From the UHGV virus genome UHGV-0176688: 41,778 bases of DNA; one strand, written 5' to 3'. Shown in pieces: positions 8,679 through 14,157 of this stretch (positions within the stretch are counted from its first letter, which is position 1; every line of letters starts with the position of its first letter). The notes under the pieces are model-generated. The model had not been told where the DNA came from. It searched no databases and worked only from the letters and a program-made list of their open reading frames with translations. The translations under genes and the position numbers were made by a program. The DNA comes from a virus.

Positions 8679-9707
8679 ATGGGTGAATTAATTATCTCTG
8701 GCAGTTCCGGTGGTTTTCTGCGCAACATTGGCAAAGAGTACCAGGAGGCCGCAGAAAACTTTATGCGGTTCATGAATGACCAGGGGGCTTATGCGCCGAA
8801 TACTCTGCGCGACCTCCGGTTAGTGTTTCATTCCTGGGCGCGCTGGTGTCACGCTCGCCAGCTTGCCTGGTTTCCGATCTCACCAGAAATGGCCCGCGAG
8901 TATTTTCTTCAGCTGCATGATGCCGATCTGGCTTCGACCACCATTGATAAGCACTACGCCATGCTGAACATGCTGCTTTCGCATTGTGGCCTTCCGCCAC
9001 TTTCGGATGATAAAAGTGTTTCTCTGGCTATGCGGCGCATCCGGCGCGAAGCGGCAACTGAAAAAGGCGAACGAACAGGCCAGGCTATTCCTTTGCGGTG
9101 GGATGATCTGAAACTGATCGACGTCCTGTTGTCCAGGTCAGAACGGCTGGTGGACCTGCGCAACCGGGCTTTTCTCTTTGTTGCATACAATACGCTGATG
9201 CGTATGTCGGAAATCTCGCGTATTCGCATAAGAGATCTGGACCAAACAGGTGACACTGTCACGTTGCATATTTCACACACGAAGACAATAACGACCGCAG
9301 CCGGGCTTGATAAAGTGCTTTCCCGTCGCACTACTGCTGTGCTGAAAGACTGGCTGGAGGCTTCCGGGCTTCGTGAACATCCTGACGCGGTGCTGTTCCC
9401 GCCGGTACACCGTAGCAATAAGGCCAGGATTACGGCAACGCCCCTTACTGCACCTGCAATGGAGAAAATATTCAGCGACGCCTGGGTGTTGCTGAATAAA
9501 GGAGATGCTACGCCAAACAAAGGAAGATACCGGACGTGGACCGGGCATAGTGCACGCGTCGGGGCCGCTATCGATATGGCTGAAAAGCAGGTGTCTATGG
9601 TGGAGATTATGCAGGAAGGAACCTGGAAGAAACCGGAAACACTTATGCGGTATCTGCGCCGTGGCGGCGTGTCTGTGGGGGCTAATAGCCGCCTGATGGA
9701 TTTATAA
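8679..9707 (+). CDS. dre: Cre-family tyrosine recombinase, Dre-like
   Basis: Clear homology to P1 Cre across the length (WFP...AMRRIRRE...AFLFVAYNTLMRMSEISRIR...TWTGHSARVGAA...ETLMRYLR); cognate rox-like site 150 bp upstream. Confidence 0.9.
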   Translation: MGELIISGSSGGFLRNIGKEYQEAAENFMRFMNDQGAYAPNTLRDLRLVFHSWARWCHARQLAWFPISPEMAREYFLQLHDADLASTTIDKHYAMLNMLLSHCGLPPLSDDKSVSLAMRRIRREAATEKGERTGQAIPLRWDDLKLIDVLLSRSERLVDLRNRAFLFVAYNTLMRMSEISRIRIRDLDQTGDTVTLHISHTKTITTAAGLDKVLSRRTTAVLKDWLEASGLREHPDAVLFPPVHRSNKARITATPLTAPAMEKIFSDAWVLLNKGDATPNKGRYRTWTGHSARVGAAIDMAEKQVSMVEIMQEGTWKKPETLMRYLRRGGVSVGANSRLMDL

Positions 9708-9708
9708 A

Positions 9709-9725
9709 TTAAATTTCTAACACAT
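9709..9725. promoter_or_regulatory. Operator-like motif upstream of the dut cargo operon
   Basis: ttaaaTTTCTAACAcat; exact 9-mer at 9714-9722. Confidence 0.5.
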
Positions 9726-9780
9726 CTTTTTAGATTAACATCTTTGCTGTAAAGTACCCTCGCCTATTTAGGAGGGTGCT

Positions 9781-10125
9781 TTGCAGAGTCAAATCACGGA
9801 ATCAAGACGCTTCAAGGTGGATGGTTACACCGTAACCTTCGCCGCTGGTGTTAAGAACAGTCATGCTGTCGTTGTGTTCGGCATCATGACCGGGCTTGAG
9901 GCCGTCCCTGTGTTTACCCTCGAAAAAAACTGGCGAAATCTGGAGGAAGCAGAAAGCTACGTCCGGAAAGTAACCATCATTGCCGCCGAAAAACTCCTGG
10001 CCCACTATCAGGAAAATTATCGCACTATGGTCGAGAAGATTAATCTCGCTTTCACTCGCCCCACTACCGGCTTTATTGCACCGGATACTAATGCAGGTCG
10101 ATATCCTGCAAGGGGGCGTCGGTGA
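9781..10125 (+). CDS. Hypothetical protein (TTG start, strong RBS GGAGGG)
   Basis: 114-aa ORF, first gene of a four- to five-gene plus-strand operon. Confidence 0.5.
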   Translation: MQSQITESRRFKVDGYTVTFAAGVKNSHAVVVFGIMTGLEAVPVFTLEKNWRNLEEAESYVRKVTIIAAEKLLAHYQENYRTMVEKINLAFTRPTTGFIAPDTNAGRYPARGRR

Positions 10126-10598
10126 AAACTTATTACCCATCTCTGAATTGTTACCCGTCTTCCTATCCAGAATTATCCGGGAAGCTGTTAGCTCTATTAG
10201 CTAAAGCACCTACGGAATGGTTTAAGCCAGTCGTTATCAATCCACACTTCCTGGATTACGGATCTGTTCGCACTCGTAACGAACTCAAAAACCTACTGGC
10301 GCATGGATTCATTCGACACCGTTCCGGTAAAGGCTATCAGTTAGCGATTGCGCCAGAAGAGGCCGTGCGGCTATTCGCATATCGTGACAGCCAGACAAAA
10401 GCTCGGGTAATAGCTCAAATACTTCATAACGGCAGCACCTATGCCCGCCAGTTTGGCGGCGACACGTCGCAGTTCTTGCGGGCGGTGCGATCGCTGGAGG
10501 AGCAAGGAATTATTGAAAGTTCCTGTCTTCCTGTTCCTACCGTTCCACATATCAAACGTCGGGTTTACACCTTCACGCAGAGAGCTAAAAAACAATGA
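10122..10598 (+). CDS. Hypothetical protein
   Basis: 158-aa ORF overlapping both neighbours by 4 nt. Confidence 0.55.
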   Translation: MKTYYPSLNCYPSSYPELSGKLLALLAKAPTEWFKPVVINPHFLDYGSVRTRNELKNLLAHGFIRHRSGKGYQLAIAPEEAVRLFAYRDSQTKARVIAQILHNGSTYARQFGGDTSQFLRAVRSLEEQGIIESSCLPVPTVPHIKRRVYTFTQRAKKQ

Positions 10599-11089
10599 TT
10601 TACGTAAAAGTGAAACGCCTACATCCGGCAGCAAAACTTCCAGCTTATGCCACCTCCGGATCGGCGGCGATGGATTTTGAGGCTGTTGAAATAAAACCAT
10701 GCGTCGATAGCAATGGTGCAATTTCCTCAAGCTGGTGGGTGTATACCGGACTGGCTATGGAGATCCCGCCCGGCTGGTGTCTGAAACTCTATCCGCGATC
10801 CGGATTGGGCTGCAAAAAACATACTCGCCTGGCTAACTGCGTAGGAATTATCGACTCCGATTATCGCGGTGAAATCATGGCAAAACTGATTACTGATCCC
10901 GGCGGGGAAGGCGTTTGTCTCAAGCCTGGAATGGCTGTCATGCAAGGCATTTTTGAGCGTGTTGAACAAGTCTCACTAGTCGAGGTTGAGGAACTCAACG
11001 AAACGGAACGTGGTGCTGGTGGCTTTGGTAGCACATCGGAAGACCACTTTGAAATTAAGCGCACACCGCTTCAGTACGCAAAGTTTTAA
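10595..11089 (+). CDS. dut: dUTP diphosphatase (trimeric dUTPase)
   Basis: Motifs RSGLG, IIDSDYRGEI, GFGSTS. Confidence 0.9.
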   Translation: MIYVKVKRLHPAAKLPAYATSGSAAMDFEAVEIKPCVDSNGAISSSWWVYTGLAMEIPPGWCLKLYPRSGLGCKKHTRLANCVGIIDSDYRGEIMAKLITDPGGEGVCLKPGMAVMQGIFERVEQVSLVEVEELNETERGAGGFGSTSEDHFEIKRTPLQYAKF

Positions 11090-11103
11090 GCAGAGGAAAG
11101 GCT

Positions 11104-11781
11104 ATGAATTACATGGCAACGAAAGAGCTTTTTAAGTTCCTTCCCAAATACAAAGCTCACAAAAACGTTAGTGCATCGAAAATCAAAAATGTTGTTATTT
11201 TCGGAGTAACTGATGCCCCACTTTGGGGCTGCATTGAACTCGTTGAACCAAAAGGGGCAACAGTTTGTGTTGACGCAATGTTTTTACAAAAACACCGACC
11301 AAAAACTGGCGGGTATCTGATCGTTTATGAAAACGGTTATCTGTTCTATGCCCCGGAGAAACCATTTGAGGAATGCTATGGCTTGGTTAACGACGCCTCC
11401 GAAAATGGAACCACGGTCATCATTACGGATGACAACGGCGTGATGATTAATATTACCGGGAGCGTAACTATTTCTGCTGGTGGTACCACTACCCAGCAAG
11501 AGGAAATCGACCTTGAAGCAGCCGACTTTTCTGACGCGCTGATGTGGCTGAAGGATGGCAAGAAAGTTGCTCGACGCGGGTGGAACGGCGAAAACCAATT
11601 CTGCTGGCTGGTTCCTGAAGGACAGTACCCGGCACGAATGGAAGCCATTAAGGGATATTTCCCCTGCGACCTCGTTCCGTATGGTGCTTATTTCGCCTTA
11701 AAAAATGCACAAGGTGTAGTTGTTCCGTGGGTGCCTTCTGTAGGCGACCTGCTGGCATGTGACTGGTTTGTAGTGGAGTGA
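11104..11781 (+). CDS. Two-domain protein with C-terminal DUF2829 domain (Tad2-like fold candidate)
   Basis: FSDALMWLKDGKKVARRGWNGENQFCWL...GVVVPWVPSVGDLLACDWFVVE is a strong DUF2829 match by eye. Confidence 0.7.
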   Translation: MNYMATKELFKFLPKYKAHKNVSASKIKNVVIFGVTDAPLWGCIELVEPKGATVCVDAMFLQKHRPKTGGYLIVYENGYLFYAPEKPFEECYGLVNDASENGTTVIITDDNGVMINITGSVTISAGGTTTQQEEIDLEAADFSDALMWLKDGKKVARRGWNGENQFCWLVPEGQYPARMEAIKGYFPCDLVPYGAYFALKNAQGVVVPWVPSVGDLLACDWFVVE

Positions 11782-11787
11782 TTTGAC

Positions 11788-12564
11788 ATGGAAAGCACCA
11801 AAACAATTCAATACCGCTTGCGTAATGGCCTGCTGGTGGCTGTTAACGCCGACATGTCACTGCCGTTTGACACGATTGAACGCACTATCATGACGTATCT
11901 CGGCTTTAATGAAGAGCTGAATGAAGAGCATGGCGTAGCTATATGGAGTGATGCAGACAGCGGCGTTCGTCGTTACATCACCGCCAGGGGCAAAGACTAC
12001 TCTCTGGAAGAACTGTTTACCCTTGCGCAGTCTTTCGAATGTGTAGCATTAGACCTGTTTAATGATCCTGCTATAGCGCAACGACTTATACGCGAGCTTG
12101 GGCTATCCGTTACACCAATTATCTTTAAAAATGGCAGCCTGACTGGCACATGGCGCGTAGAACGCATCTCAAACTACCTTCCATATAACAGACAGTTAAA
12201 TGGAGTAATCTCCGGCGTTAATCAGCCCGTAGCGTGTGAAAATGTAAACCTGGTTGTCGCTGTTTTGGCAACCGCATGTCGTGTTATCGGTTTGGCTAAA
12301 CAGGCATTTATTCATTTCCCAAATGGTGCAGAAGGTAGCGCAGAGATTATCGCGTGTGATTTCGAATTTACCTGGATGCTACGCGAACATCTGGACCAAA
12401 CAGTATTCCGTGCCGAAGAACTGGATATGTATATCACGTCAACGATTCCAGACGATGTGCGAGCTGAAGCAATCGCTATAGCCAGGGCGAAATGCCGTGC
12501 GGCGATTGCAGAACGGGCCAAAGAAGAACAGTCCAATGATACAGCGGCAGAAGAGGTGAAATAA
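11788..12564 (+). CDS. Hypothetical protein
   Basis: 258-aa ORF ending at a hairpin terminator. Confidence 0.55.
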   Translation: MESTKTIQYRLRNGLLVAVNADMSLPFDTIERTIMTYLGFNEELNEEHGVAIWSDADSGVRRYITARGKDYSLEELFTLAQSFECVALDLFNDPAIAQRLIRELGLSVTPIIFKNGSLTGTWRVERISNYLPYNRQLNGVISGVNQPVACENVNLVVAVLATACRVIGLAKQAFIHFPNGAEGSAEIIACDFEFTWMLREHLDQTVFRAEELDMYITSTIPDDVRAEAIAIARAKCRAAIAERAKEEQSNDTAAEEVK

Positions 12565-12565
12565 C

Positions 12566-12598
12566 AAAAAGCCCGCTTGGTATGGCGGGCTTCTTTTC
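12566..12598. terminator. Bidirectional rho-independent terminator
   Basis: aaaaaGCCCGCttggtatgGCGGGCttctttt. Confidence 0.8.
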
Positions 12599-12794
12599 AA
12601 ATACTGGAAGCACTTTGTCTGCTACCAAGCATTCTCTGTTTAAGCACAACCATTTCCTGACGGCATAACACAGCAATAGCAGTCCTGGCGCCAATTTGCT
12701 TACCAATCAGGTATTGCTTTACCTCGCGGCGACTCACGCCATCAAGAAGCATCTTTAACGCTTCACGGGACAATTTGTTGTATTTGCGTGCCAT
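12597..12794 (-). CDS. Small HTH-like protein, hypothetical
   Basis: ATG at 12794 five nt after upstream stop; MARKYNKLSREALKMLLDGVSRREVKQYLIGKQIGARTAIAVL resembles a DNA-binding HTH; 3-prime end runs into terminator stem so uncertain. Confidence 0.3.
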   Translation of the reverse strand: MARKYNKLSREALKMLLDGVSRREVKQYLIGKQIGARTAIAVLCRQEMVVLKQRMLGSRQSASSI

Positions 12795-12798
12795 TAAT

Positions 12799-13074
12799 CT
12801 ACTCCGCAGAACCATACAATCTACGTAGCGTGGTAGCAGTAGATGCAGATATCGCCCTTAAAACCTCCTCCTTACTTACATCACTGCGGGAGAGGATTTC
12901 AGAAGGCGATATTTCCTTTAACGACTTTTGCTTCTCTTTGCAGTTCTCGACCAGTTCCGCAGGAATAACAAACCTGCTATCAATCGGCACAAGTTCATCA
13001 AGCGTTTGTTTGGGTACGTTAAACGTAGGATTCTTGAACACCGCAGATTCGGTTCTTAAGTTAATTTTCGACAT
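12799..13074 (-). CDS. Hypothetical protein carrying a Doc-tail-like C-terminus
   Basis: Ends TTLRRLYGSAE, mirroring doc ORF end [11 protein letters not shown]; about 26-bp imperfect direct repeat at nucleotide level. Confidence 0.4.
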   Translation of the reverse strand: MSKINLRTESAVFKNPTFNVPKQTLDELVPIDSRFVIPAELVENCKEKQKSLKEISPSEILSRSDVSKEEVLRAISASTATTLRRLYGSAE

Positions 13075-13093
13075 TGTTTCGTAACTCCACTAC

Positions 13094-13474
13094 TCAAGTC
13101 TTGGAACCATATAGTTCACGTAGCTTTTCTGCGACTGAAGATACGGCGATTTCACCAGTCGCAGCCCCTACAGTAAGGTCTGCCAGTTCAGGTGAATCAA
13201 ATACCTGCACCCCATTACGGCGTAGAAATAGCAGCGCACTGTTTAGCGCGGTACGCTTATTGGCATCATTGAATATATGCCCTCTCGCAGTAGCCACCAG
13301 GTAGGTTGCGGAGACTTCGAAAAGGTCGGTAATCTCTTCGTACACAACTCTGGCCTGGACTCTCCCGATAATGGCCTCTGCCCTACCCGGATCTGACATG
13401 CCAGGCAGGCCGCCGTAGCGGCTTATATTCGCATCATGAAGCGCAATAAGTTCTTCCGGTGATATATGCCTCAT
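13094..13474 (-). CDS. doc: Doc toxin (Fic/Doc family kinase)
   Basis: Near-identical to P1 Doc as recalled ([39 protein letters not shown]...); overlaps phd stop. Confidence 0.95.
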
Positions 13475-13701
13475 TATCGGTTAACCAGTTCCTTGTTGGT
13501 GGAGTCCAGGGTGTCAAACAGGGATGCAAATTCAGCATCCAGCGCTGCTTTTTTGTAGGCTTCGAAAGTAGCCTTGCTAACAATTACTGCTGGCTCACGG
13601 CCTCTGCGGGTGATTTCAACTTCTTCCCCGGCTTCAACATTGTTGAGCACTTCAGAAAGGTTGCCGCGCGCGGTACGGAAGTTAATGGATTGCATAAACA
13701 C
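13474..13701 (-). CDS. phd: Phd antitoxin
   Basis: [39 protein letters not shown] matches P1 Phd; directly upstream of doc. Confidence 0.9.
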
Positions 13702-13767
13702 CTCGTGTACTCGTTATGTGTACACAATTATAAACTTCACAGGCATAAAGCACCAGCACTTTGCAGC

Positions 13768-14157
13768 TTAAATCACCGGACAATCATCAAATTCCCCACT
13801 TCGGGCATCATTAATGACATGAGTGATCACACCAAACACAGCATTACTCCCCGTGCATCCATCGTCATCCACTGGTAACGCCTCTTTCTTCCCGGTGCTT
13901 AAATCCTCCAGGTGCTGGCGCGGATACTTCCTGTATCTTTTTATGCGATATTCACCTTCCATAGCGCAGACAAGTAGCGAACCATCAACCGGAGTAAGTG
14001 AGGAATCGACCACCAGCAAAGCACCCTGCAATATTCCCTCACGGTGATGGCTATCAGCTGCCCGCATGAAGTAGGTTGCTGATGGATGCCTGATTAGTTG
14101 CTGATCAAGAGAAATTCGGCTTTCAACATAATCCGCCGCAGGAGAAGGGAAGCCCAT
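13768..14157 (-). CDS. humD: HumD (UmuD-prime-like S24 peptidase-fold protein)
   Basis: GFPSPAADYVESRISLDQQLIRHPSATYF matches the UmuD core; LexA box upstream; humD-phd-doc synteny as in P1. Confidence 0.8.
   Translation of the reverse strand: MGFPSPAADYVESRISLDQQLIRHPSATYFMRAADSHHREGILQGALLVVDSSLTPVDGSLLVCAMEGEYRIKRYRKYPRQHLEDLSTGKKEALPVDDDGCTGSNAVFGVITHVINDARSGEFDDCPVI

Follow-up and report, generated by a model that had tools for sequence, protein, structure and literature searches.

The window analysed here is a 41,778-nucleotide (nt) stretch of virus DNA (UHGV-0176688) closely related to Escherichia phage D6, a P1-like plasmid prophage. The region 8600–13800 shares 96.9% identity with D6 over 89% of its length. 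Directly behind the gene of the Dre recombinase lies a block of five genes, which encode the products of open reading frames (ORFs) 1 and 2, a dUTPase, a two-domain protein with a C-terminal Tad2 domain, and a homologue of P1 IsaA. The features of the locus, with protein lengths in amino acids (aa), are:

7247–8284, minus strand: gene of the C1-like prophage repressor (D6 orf1), 345 aa
8495–8526: rox site, 32 bp
8679–9707: gene of the Dre recombinase, 331 of 342 residues identical to D6 Dre; stop codon at 9705–9707
9706–9722, plus strand: D6-type operator-like site with the core TTTCTAACA at 9714–9722; starts inside the dre stop codon, 59 nt upstream of ORF1
9781–10125, plus strand: ORF1 (D6 orf117), 114 aa; TTG start, AGGAGG 5 nt upstream
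10122–10598, plus strand: ORF2 (D6 orf116), 158 aa; GTGA overlap with ORF1
10595–11089, plus strand: trimeric-type dUTPase (D6 orf115), 164 aa; ATGA overlap with ORF2
11104–11781, plus strand: two-domain Tad2-fusion protein, 225 aa, the full-length form of D6 orf114; 14-nt gap after dut
11131–11403, plus strand: N-terminal module of the Tad2 fusion, approximately residues 10–100; RyR-Tad-type/Dec-like small β domain
11512–11778, plus strand: Tad2 domain (PF11195), residues 137–225
11788–12564, plus strand: IsaA homologue (D6 orf113), 258 aa; 6-nt gap after the Tad2 fusion
12566–12595, both strands: bidirectional intrinsic terminator; hairpin of 11 pairs (6 G-C) with flanking A-run and T-run

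An earlier note on this DNA had described five co-directional, tightly coupled genes bounded by an operator-like motif and a bidirectional terminator. All five ORFs were found in this arrangement on the plus strand, joined by the GTGA and ATGA overlaps and the gaps of 14 and 6 nt, with the motif at 9706–9722 and the hairpin at 12566–12595 as boundaries. The five products match D6 orf117–orf113 one to one with 96–99% protein identity. The locus is for the most part already explained as a conserved early operon of D6 that encodes a canonical dUTPase and a sponge of the Tad2 family. The best explanation of 9706–12595 as a whole, which we consider probable, is a D6-type early accessory operon behind dre that is silenced by the repressor and carries a Tad2 sponge cassette.

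The Tad2 domain and the mosaic cassette

The DUF2829 assignment that the earlier note gave to the 225-aa protein is borne out by Pfam family PF11195, now named Tad2-like, which matches residues 141–224 (E 7e-23, 81.4 bits vs a gathering score of 25). Among solved structures the domain matches ModTad2 (9eib, E 2.5e-19; 8v3e, E 3.3e-19), HgmTad2/AcrIIA7 (8kbi, E 2.6e-10), SPO1 Tad2 (8sme, E 1e-8) and SptTad2 (8wjd, E 5e-8), and 39 of 88 residues (44%) are identical to ModTad2. The HgmTad2 residues that contact the glycocyclic ADP-ribose gcADPR are W21, N22, G23, W87, S90, T92 and D93 (PMC10680739). All but T92 have identical counterparts in the window protein, where W160, N161 and G162 (GWNG), W209, S212 and D215 align with W21, N22, G23, W87, S90 and D93. 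As in ModTad2/MoTad2 (9eib, 8v3e), the GWNG loop and the C-terminal W..PS..D motif of the ADP-ribose (ADPR) signal pocket are conserved, and the variable region is the β2–β5 insertion that forms a second pocket. The characterised Tad2 proteins stand alone and comprise ~90–105 aa, whereas the window protein has a 136-residue N-terminal extension made up of the module and a β-rich linker.

ModTad2/MoTad2 sequesters the type II Thoeris signal His-ADPR and binds the Pycsar nucleotides cUMP and cCMP in its second pocket (PMC12393519; 10.1101/2024.01.03.573942). Other Tad2 homologues bind 3'cADPR, N7-cADPR or cyclic dinucleotides (PMC12393519; PMC10680739), and the ligands of the window domain are not predictable from its sequence. 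The domain is most likely an oligomeric sponge that would sequester TIR-derived ADP-ribose signals, gcADPR or His-ADPR. The hypervariable insertion segment may bind a second cyclic nucleotide, such that Thoeris, and perhaps Pycsar or CBASS, would be blunted. The anti-defence function suggested in the earlier note is upheld, as a candidate function, for the DUF2829/Tad2 protein, which belongs to a sponge family with solved structures; the accompanying idea of an insertion holds for the Tad2-fusion gene and fails for the block. An independent automated screen detected "Tad2 AcrIIA7" in 93% of D6-like and 56% of P1-like phage-plasmids (10.1101/2025.09.12.675607), and the presence of Tad2 in D6-like elements is therefore not new.

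The 27 full-length homologues of the fusion protein fall into four N-module classes, two linker classes and three Tad2-insertion classes, which occur in at least 14 combinations. Residues 171–205 are the most variable, with a mean pairwise identity of 0.52 (minimum 0.23) vs 0.91 and 0.85 in the flanking core. This segment is the β2–β5 insertion, which provides the second-ligand pocket in HgmTad2 and MoTad2 (PMC10680739). The three natural insertion alleles, EGQYPARMEAIKGY, ..RLTPIKHA.. and LAGS..VNLH, are predicted to differ in their second ligand, and specificity would be shuffled among Tad2 alleles. The G+C content is 0.418 in the N-module vs 0.526 in the Tad2 domain.

The position of the fusion gene also differs between lineages. 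P1-like elements hold the Tad2-fusion/isaA pair in the ssb operon instead: in SJ46 and Ro157c2YLVW a two-domain protein with 73% identity to that of the window is encoded between ssb and isaA, and in RCS47 the two-domain Tad2 gene is interrupted by an insertion sequence. In P1 ssb is followed directly by isaA, with no Tad2 cassette between them. A P1-type operator (Ossb) is located 20 nt ahead of the ssb-tad2fusion-isaA unit in SJ46. Judged by gene order and operator matches, the cassette in both lineages follows a C1-type operator and directly precedes isaA. No Tad2-gene remnant was found inside P1 isaA, and P1 and SJ46 share an upstream leader only. This leader, FHEKNTPRYC.RWWENIPD, is common to P1 IsaA (the first ~59 of 320 aa) and SJ46 J46_0048 (the first ~56); the leader-bearing genes lie at 4070–5032 of the extracted P1 stretch and 3833–4678 of the extracted SJ46 stretch. 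Homology to the window proteins begins after the leader, so the start codons annotated in P1 and SJ46 were probably placed too early, unless the two phages have a small ORF in common ahead of these genes.

D6 orf114 (146 aa) corresponds to an in-frame deletion of window residues 21–99. The short D6-type allele is also present in several natural Salmonella and E. coli plasmids, including Salmonella pYU39_89, and is therefore a circulating natural variant, not a laboratory artefact of D6. The deletion junctions, from comparison of window 11161–11400 with 2594–3034 of the D6 stretch, show short A-rich microhomology (CACAAAAAC / CCGAAAATG). A module-Tad2 protein with 43% identity is encoded by gp55 of Klebsiella phage SopranoGao (2486–3082 of the extracted stretch). 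The gene belongs to an early rightward operon by divergent repressor/cro-like regulators of this non-P1 temperate phage, and the fusion thus exists outside phage-plasmids.

Operator-like motifs and transcription

The core TTTCTAACA occurs six times in the window vs 0.41 copies expected, and none of 100 shuffles reached six. The six sites share an extended asymmetric consensus of approximately ATTRRTTTTCTAACAY, and at three of them an inverted GTTAGA arm is located ~20 nt upstream. All six are intergenic and lie just upstream of gene or operon starts, as mapped on the D6 annotation; the orientation of five follows the direction of the downstream genes:

8304: upstream of the c1 repressor gene, 20 nt from the c1 start
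9714: upstream of the five-gene operon
21767, minus strand: upstream of the pdcB-like operon
27006, minus strand: upstream of the orf88 operon, divergent from ref
27664: upstream of the orf86-icd-ant operon
39176: upstream of hrdC/dmt

The motif suggests C1-type repression of the five-gene operon, and the six sites could define the D6 C1 regulon. The C1 operators of P1 are 17 bp long. The P1 consensus has no match in the window within 3 mismatches; the motif is thus D6-specific, which fits a repressor of other specificity. The arrangement nonetheless resembles the C1-controlled early units of P1 (Oref-ref, Omat-mat and Ossb-ssb-isaA) in that an asymmetric AT-rich operator precedes an accessory unit by the recombinase gene. 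In P1, Oref and Omat directly follow cre and Ossb lies ahead of ssb-isaA, and isaA is common to P1 and the window (49% identity). The window operon differs from the P1 units in its operator sequence and cargo genes, and no overlapping consensus promoter was found.

Inspection of 9707–9781 by eye revealed weak hexamers only, with 3–4 of 6 matches. The site at 9706–9722 might block read-through from dre or overlap a weak promoter, because it starts within the dre stop codon. The sole strong sigma-70-like promoter in 8300–13900 is located at 8508–8535 on the plus strand (TTGGCA-16-TATAAT, 11 of 12 matches); it overlaps rox (8495–8526) and points towards dre. The homologies, the conservation of the pocket residues, the statistics and places of the motif, the synteny and the mosaicism are demonstrated by the analysis. 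Repressor binding and the timing of expression, like the ligand specificity and all phenotypes of the cassette, are what we infer: the operon would probably be silent in the lysogen through a D6 C1-type repressor on the operator overlapping the end of dre, and would be expressed on infection or induction, with transcription ending at the bidirectional terminator. This terminator (12566–12595) is common to the five-gene block and the convergent pdcA-doc-phd unit. The only match in an Rfam scan of 8200–13900 is a sub-threshold Trp_leader on the terminator (26.4 bits vs 41).

The N-terminal module

The N-terminal domain of the fusion protein had been described as uncharacterised; it indeed has no assigned function and belongs to a family without a Pfam model. 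An indexed search located the module only in enterobacterial phage-plasmid proteins, and a phmmer/HMMER scan of 1.84 billion representatives retrieved 1,761 clusters at E<=1e-3, typically with 35–48% identity over residues 10–100. Among the best 146 representatives, the module stands alone in 46 (~90 aa), is N-terminal in 79 and C-terminal in 21. In PHROGs the family is represented by entries 11049, 872 and 9467, none with an assigned function, and 76 of 76 scanned relatives match phrog_11049. Its signature is P.Y.CHK.V.A.KI ... KH.P..GGY.V.YEDGY.S.SPA.AFE.GY. The window module keeps Y16, H19, K20, H64, P66, GGY69–71, Y75, G78, Y79, P84, F88, E89 and Y92, and has A18, N77, F81, A83 and C91 where the consensus has C, D, S, S and G.

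Fusion partners were counted in the 76 scanned relatives, and these counts are descriptive, without a background control:

Tad2: 7 of 76
PF13876 (Acb4): 4 of 76
PF21825 (Sequestin): 3 of 76
Acb2/Tad1 hairpin (PF24729): 2 of 76
RyR: 1 of 76
DUF4406 (nucleoside deoxyribosyltransferase-like): 1 of 76
MazG-like (two PHROG families): 4 + 1 of 76

Acb4 (PF13876) and Sequestin (PF21825) are proven sponges (PMC12265669). The relatives include multi-sponge chains, namely module+Tad2+Sequestin and module+Sequestin+Acb4, and by domain matches the module appears linked to five sponge families: Tad2, Acb4, Sequestin, the Acb2/Tad1 hairpin and RyR. These proteins resemble sponge-sponge fusions such as Acb4-Tad2 of Pasteurella phage Pm86 and Acb4-Sequestin of Pseudomonas phage Ab09, in which small domains are strung on one polypeptide; in contrast to the window N-module, a ligand has been demonstrated for every domain of the Pm86 and Ab09 fusions. 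The module gives no PF21825 or PF13876 match and was rejected as a Sequestin or Acb4. It was also rejected as a Lockin, a family reported absent from complete phage genomes, in which the module is present, and as an Acb5, whose conserved W38/R10/H61 pattern it does not have.

The closest characterised counterpart is RyR Tad, gp68 of Pectobacterium phage vB_PatP_CB1 (10.64898/2026.06.04.730250). Alignment by hhalign places gp68 residues 2–70 in the module family (97.1% probability, E 6.3e-11), which makes the window protein the Tad2 counterpart of RyR Tad. In both proteins an N-terminal module of the same family is followed by a C-terminal sponge domain, which in RyR Tad binds gcADPR. The RyR Tad sponge, however, is a RyR repeat and not a Tad2 domain, and its module is shortened and without the middle strands. 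RyR Tad comes from a hotspot of a lytic N4-like phage, whereas the window gene belongs to a repressor-controlled phage-plasmid operon. The N-domain of RyR Tad forms a domain-swapped dimer with a five-stranded β-sheet (10.64898/2026.06.04.730250).

The sole sequence relative of the module in the PDB is the OB-fold protein Dec of phage L (6e3c), matched over Dec residues 24–93 with E 0.0026–0.0031 by two independent profiles and 0.044 with a single sequence. The two share KPEVGGY...Y...S..AFE..YT motifs, and the order of secondary structure elements in the AlphaFold2 (AF2) model, b1-b2-b3-a-b4-b5, agrees with an OB-fold, the model being of low confidence. Unlike the module family, Dec is without several invariant polar residues and is a trimeric capsid binder, and the match is statistically marginal.

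Attached to the Tad2 domain, the module most likely adds oligomerisation and/or a second activity. A role as an oligomerisation or scaffold domain only, which would raise the valency or stability of the attached sponge, is plausible, although we stop short of calling it probable. It would accord with the domain-swapped N-domain of RyR Tad, which is dispensable for activity, with the version without the module in D6 and several natural plasmids, and with the placement of the module at either end of its partners. However, about a third of the representatives stand alone, the conserved residues are mostly polar or aromatic, unlike those of a hydrophobic interface, and a dimeriser has no obvious need on a tetrameric Tad2 domain.

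The stand-alone proteins and the strongly conserved polar and aromatic positions (H, K, H, GGY, Y-DGY-S-SP, FE-GY) also fit a module that acts in its own right as a novel sponge for immune signals or another kind of anti-signalling domain, with the 225-aa protein as a bifunctional two-sponge fusion. The fusions to Tad2, Acb4, Sequestin, the Acb2/Tad1 hairpin and RyR, and the existence of multi-sponge chains, point in the same direction; the logic of seeking domains fused to known sponges has already found Sequestin, in an application to Pfam families only, among which the module has no model (PMC12265669). We regard this as possible but doubtful. The one tested example, RyR Tad 1–86, is inactive against type I Thoeris and serves dimerisation in the crystal, the fusion counts lack a background, and the window allele has lost four consensus residues while D6 has deleted the module. 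With the same reserve, the ~85-aa module may be the founding example, in a relative of a model phage, of an autonomous anti-signalling family, sponge or signal-modifying, of at least 1,761 clusters at 50% identity. If so, earlier fusion-based searches would have missed it for want of a Pfam model, and phages would combine it with Tad2, Acb4, Sequestin, Acb2/Tad1 and RyR such that several immune signals are covered by one polypeptide.

P1-type phages package anti-restriction proteins (the Dar system), which counts in favour of a third role for the module. A Dec-like module that anchors Tad2 on the capsid and thereby carries the sponge along with the phage particle is nevertheless extremely improbable: Dec, a capsid-decoration protein, is the only PDB sequence relative (E 0.003) and the single-sequence match reaches into the β-rich linker, but the conserved H-K and K-H residues of the family are missing in Dec, externally bound decoration proteins stay outside the cell, and the module is fused to many cytoplasmic partners.

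Backbone genes and significance

The other four genes of the block recur in a distant element. An 85.6-kb phage-plasmid of Citrobacter freundii (NZ_CP114569) carries, in order, terminase, c1-like and recombinase genes, an ORF1 homologue (43% identity, 7e-26), an extra ORF, an ORF2 homologue (25%, 6e-10), a dUTPase-fold protein (27%, 1e-19) and an IsaA homologue (25%, 2e-14); its operon contains no Tad2 gene. Because the four genes are syntenic in this element at 25–43% identity, ORF1-ORF2-dut-isaA is taken to be a long-conserved unit that accompanies the recombinase gene. ORF1, the putative winged-helix protein ORF2, the dUTPase and IsaA would form a backbone common to distant phage-plasmids, to which the Tad2-fusion gene would be a fifth, mobile mosaic counter-defence cassette inserted directly upstream of isaA.

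ORF1 matches phrog_1968 (4e-48) and has no Pfam, NCBIfam or PDB match. Its homologues directly follow a Cre/Dre-type recombinase gene in the Citrobacter phage-plasmid and in an IncY plasmid. A relationship to P1 C8 was considered and is unsupported (E 0.061). ORF2 matches phrog_6669 (1e-97), with D6 as the sole carrier among phage records. The Citrobacter ORF2 homologue has sub-threshold MarR_2 and MarR matches at residues ~91–140 (E 0.0017 and 0.0069), and ORF2, which is coupled in translation to ORF1 and dut, is possibly a winged-helix (MarR-like) protein. PADLOC and NCBIfam searches returned nothing for ORF1, ORF2 and IsaA.

The dUTPase named in the earlier note matches PF00692 (E 1.7e-14), and its scores exceed the cut-offs of NF001862 (121.6 bits vs 103), TIGR00576 (119.1 vs 102.55) and PF00692 (54.2 vs 22). 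The motifs PRSG (67), GIIDSDYRG (84) and RGAGGFGS (139) are kept, and the enzyme would keep dUTP low during phage replication. The dUTPase-fold gene of Citrobacter NZ_CP114569 (4269–4811 of the extracted stretch) encodes SAPD for PRSG and ALVEPGDHS for GIIDSDYRG, without the C-terminal RG..GFGS (motif V), and the protein no longer matches Pfam dUTPase. Retention of the gene despite the loss of its motifs hints at a role in the operon beyond catalysis. In Bacillus phage JL (1418–2288 of the extracted stretch) the dUTPase gp136 is followed after 2 nt by the 90-aa Tad2 homologue gp137. The dut-then-tad2 adjacency thus recurs in an unrelated SPO1-like lineage, which may be coincidence or a functional link.

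IsaA of the window shares 49% identity with P1 IsaA over 249 residues (E 5e-84) and matches phrog_2326 (3e-134). Members of this small family occur only on enterobacterial contigs in the size range of phage-plasmids. P1 can grow lytically in the laboratory without isaA, at an efficiency of plating of 0.86 (PMC10695390). Structure prediction of the 11788–12564 product yielded a confident AF2 model (pLDDT 86, pTM 0.82) with repeated alpha-beta-beta-beta-alpha units and a long C-terminal helix. Foldseek comparison of this model with the PDB found nothing and with BFVD only P1 IsaA, and profile searches against PDB and Pfam gave nothing significant. The constant place of isaA beside the Tad2 cassette is the sole lead to its function.

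A canonical dUTPase would also suit an operon that serves replication and nucleotide housekeeping and takes no part in counter-defence, and in which the DUF2829 domain binds a host metabolite or regulator for phage regulation. The cassette lies within the ssb operon in P1-like phages, and HgmTad2 binds one such regulator, c-di-GMP, with picomolar affinity (PMC10680739). This is an improbable account of the operon, as all Tad2 homologues tested so far are immune-signal sponges (PMC12393519, PMC10680739), the pocket residues are conserved, the mosaic hypervariability of the ligand-specifying segment fits an arms race, and the cassette is dispensable and absent from P1.

The earlier note had interpreted the block as a cargo operon inserted between the recombinase gene and phd-doc, at the position where P1 has genes of the cra/ref side. 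The gene order in P1 needs correction: c8, ref and mat follow cre, and cra is located upstream of cre. A recent insertion of a foreign cargo island is very unlikely and is already contradicted. P1 does have other genes after cre, and a survey of 50,697 phage records shows ORF1 and ORF2 in D6 alone. However, the block is the normal D6 arrangement, present in D6 and ~100–150 plasmids; at least 80% of 9700–13100 is present in at least 96 PLSDB plasmids, and ORF1 occurs in 157 plasmids and ORF2 in 130, nearly all of them ~90 kb and non-mobilizable. The synteny in the Citrobacter phage-plasmid and the operator motif of the element itself ahead of the block also argue against an island. A foreign composition was rejected, the G+C content of the block (0.483 vs 0.472 for the window) being ordinary. 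Among P1 relatives the block is present throughout D6-like elements and absent at that position from P1-like ones.

Several observations weigh against the reading of the block as a repressor-silenced early operon with a functional Tad2 sponge fusion. Between dre and ORF1 (9707–9781) no sigma-70-like promoter was found at >=9/12 matches, and the operon may be transcribed by read-through from dre or from a weak promoter. The Arg of dUTPase motif IV, as in E. coli Dut, is not evident in the window protein as far as a reading of the sequence without a tool alignment shows. HgmTad2 T92 is replaced by G214 in the window protein, where ModTad2 has Ser. The AF2 monomer of the 225-aa fusion, predicted from a 30-sequence alignment, has a pLDDT of 43.6 and is unusable for fold search, oligomer or pockets. 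Residues 1–86 of RyR Tad alone have no anti-type-I-Thoeris activity (10.64898/2026.06.04.730250). Four nearly invariant positions of the window module are altered (D77N, S81F, S83A and G91C), which lowers the confidence that this module is fully functional, and from these changes and the loss in D6 the N-module may be dispensable or decaying in the D6 lineage.

Beyond the shared terminator, a 91-aa ORF on the minus strand (12799–13074) lies between pdcA and doc and matches phrog_31462 (E 7e-62). It is missing in D6, where pdcA abuts doc, and among the plasmids listed only four cover the stretch that contains it. The ORF has no Pfam, NCBIfam or PADLOC match.

Three aspects of the Tad2 operon are new. 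The fusion partner is recognised as an RyR-Tad-type module, whose large family has no model in Pfam and turns up next to five families of sponges; the segment that sets Tad2 specificity is exchanged among mosaic alleles; and in both the D6 and the P1 lineage the cassette appears to be under repressor control. The genes ORF1-ORF2-dut-isaA are no longer classed as "cargo" but as a conserved backbone operon linked to the recombinase, and IsaA is flagged as a well-folded protein without known fold relatives. Phage-plasmids of the P1/D6 type, which are classic tools of genetics, occur widely in clinical E. coli, Shigella and Salmonella. In these elements Tad2 is encoded by a mosaic cassette that appears to be repressor-controlled and would swap its second-ligand specificity segment, and studies of the N-terminal module could reveal a new anti-immune activity or explain sponges built with an adaptor.

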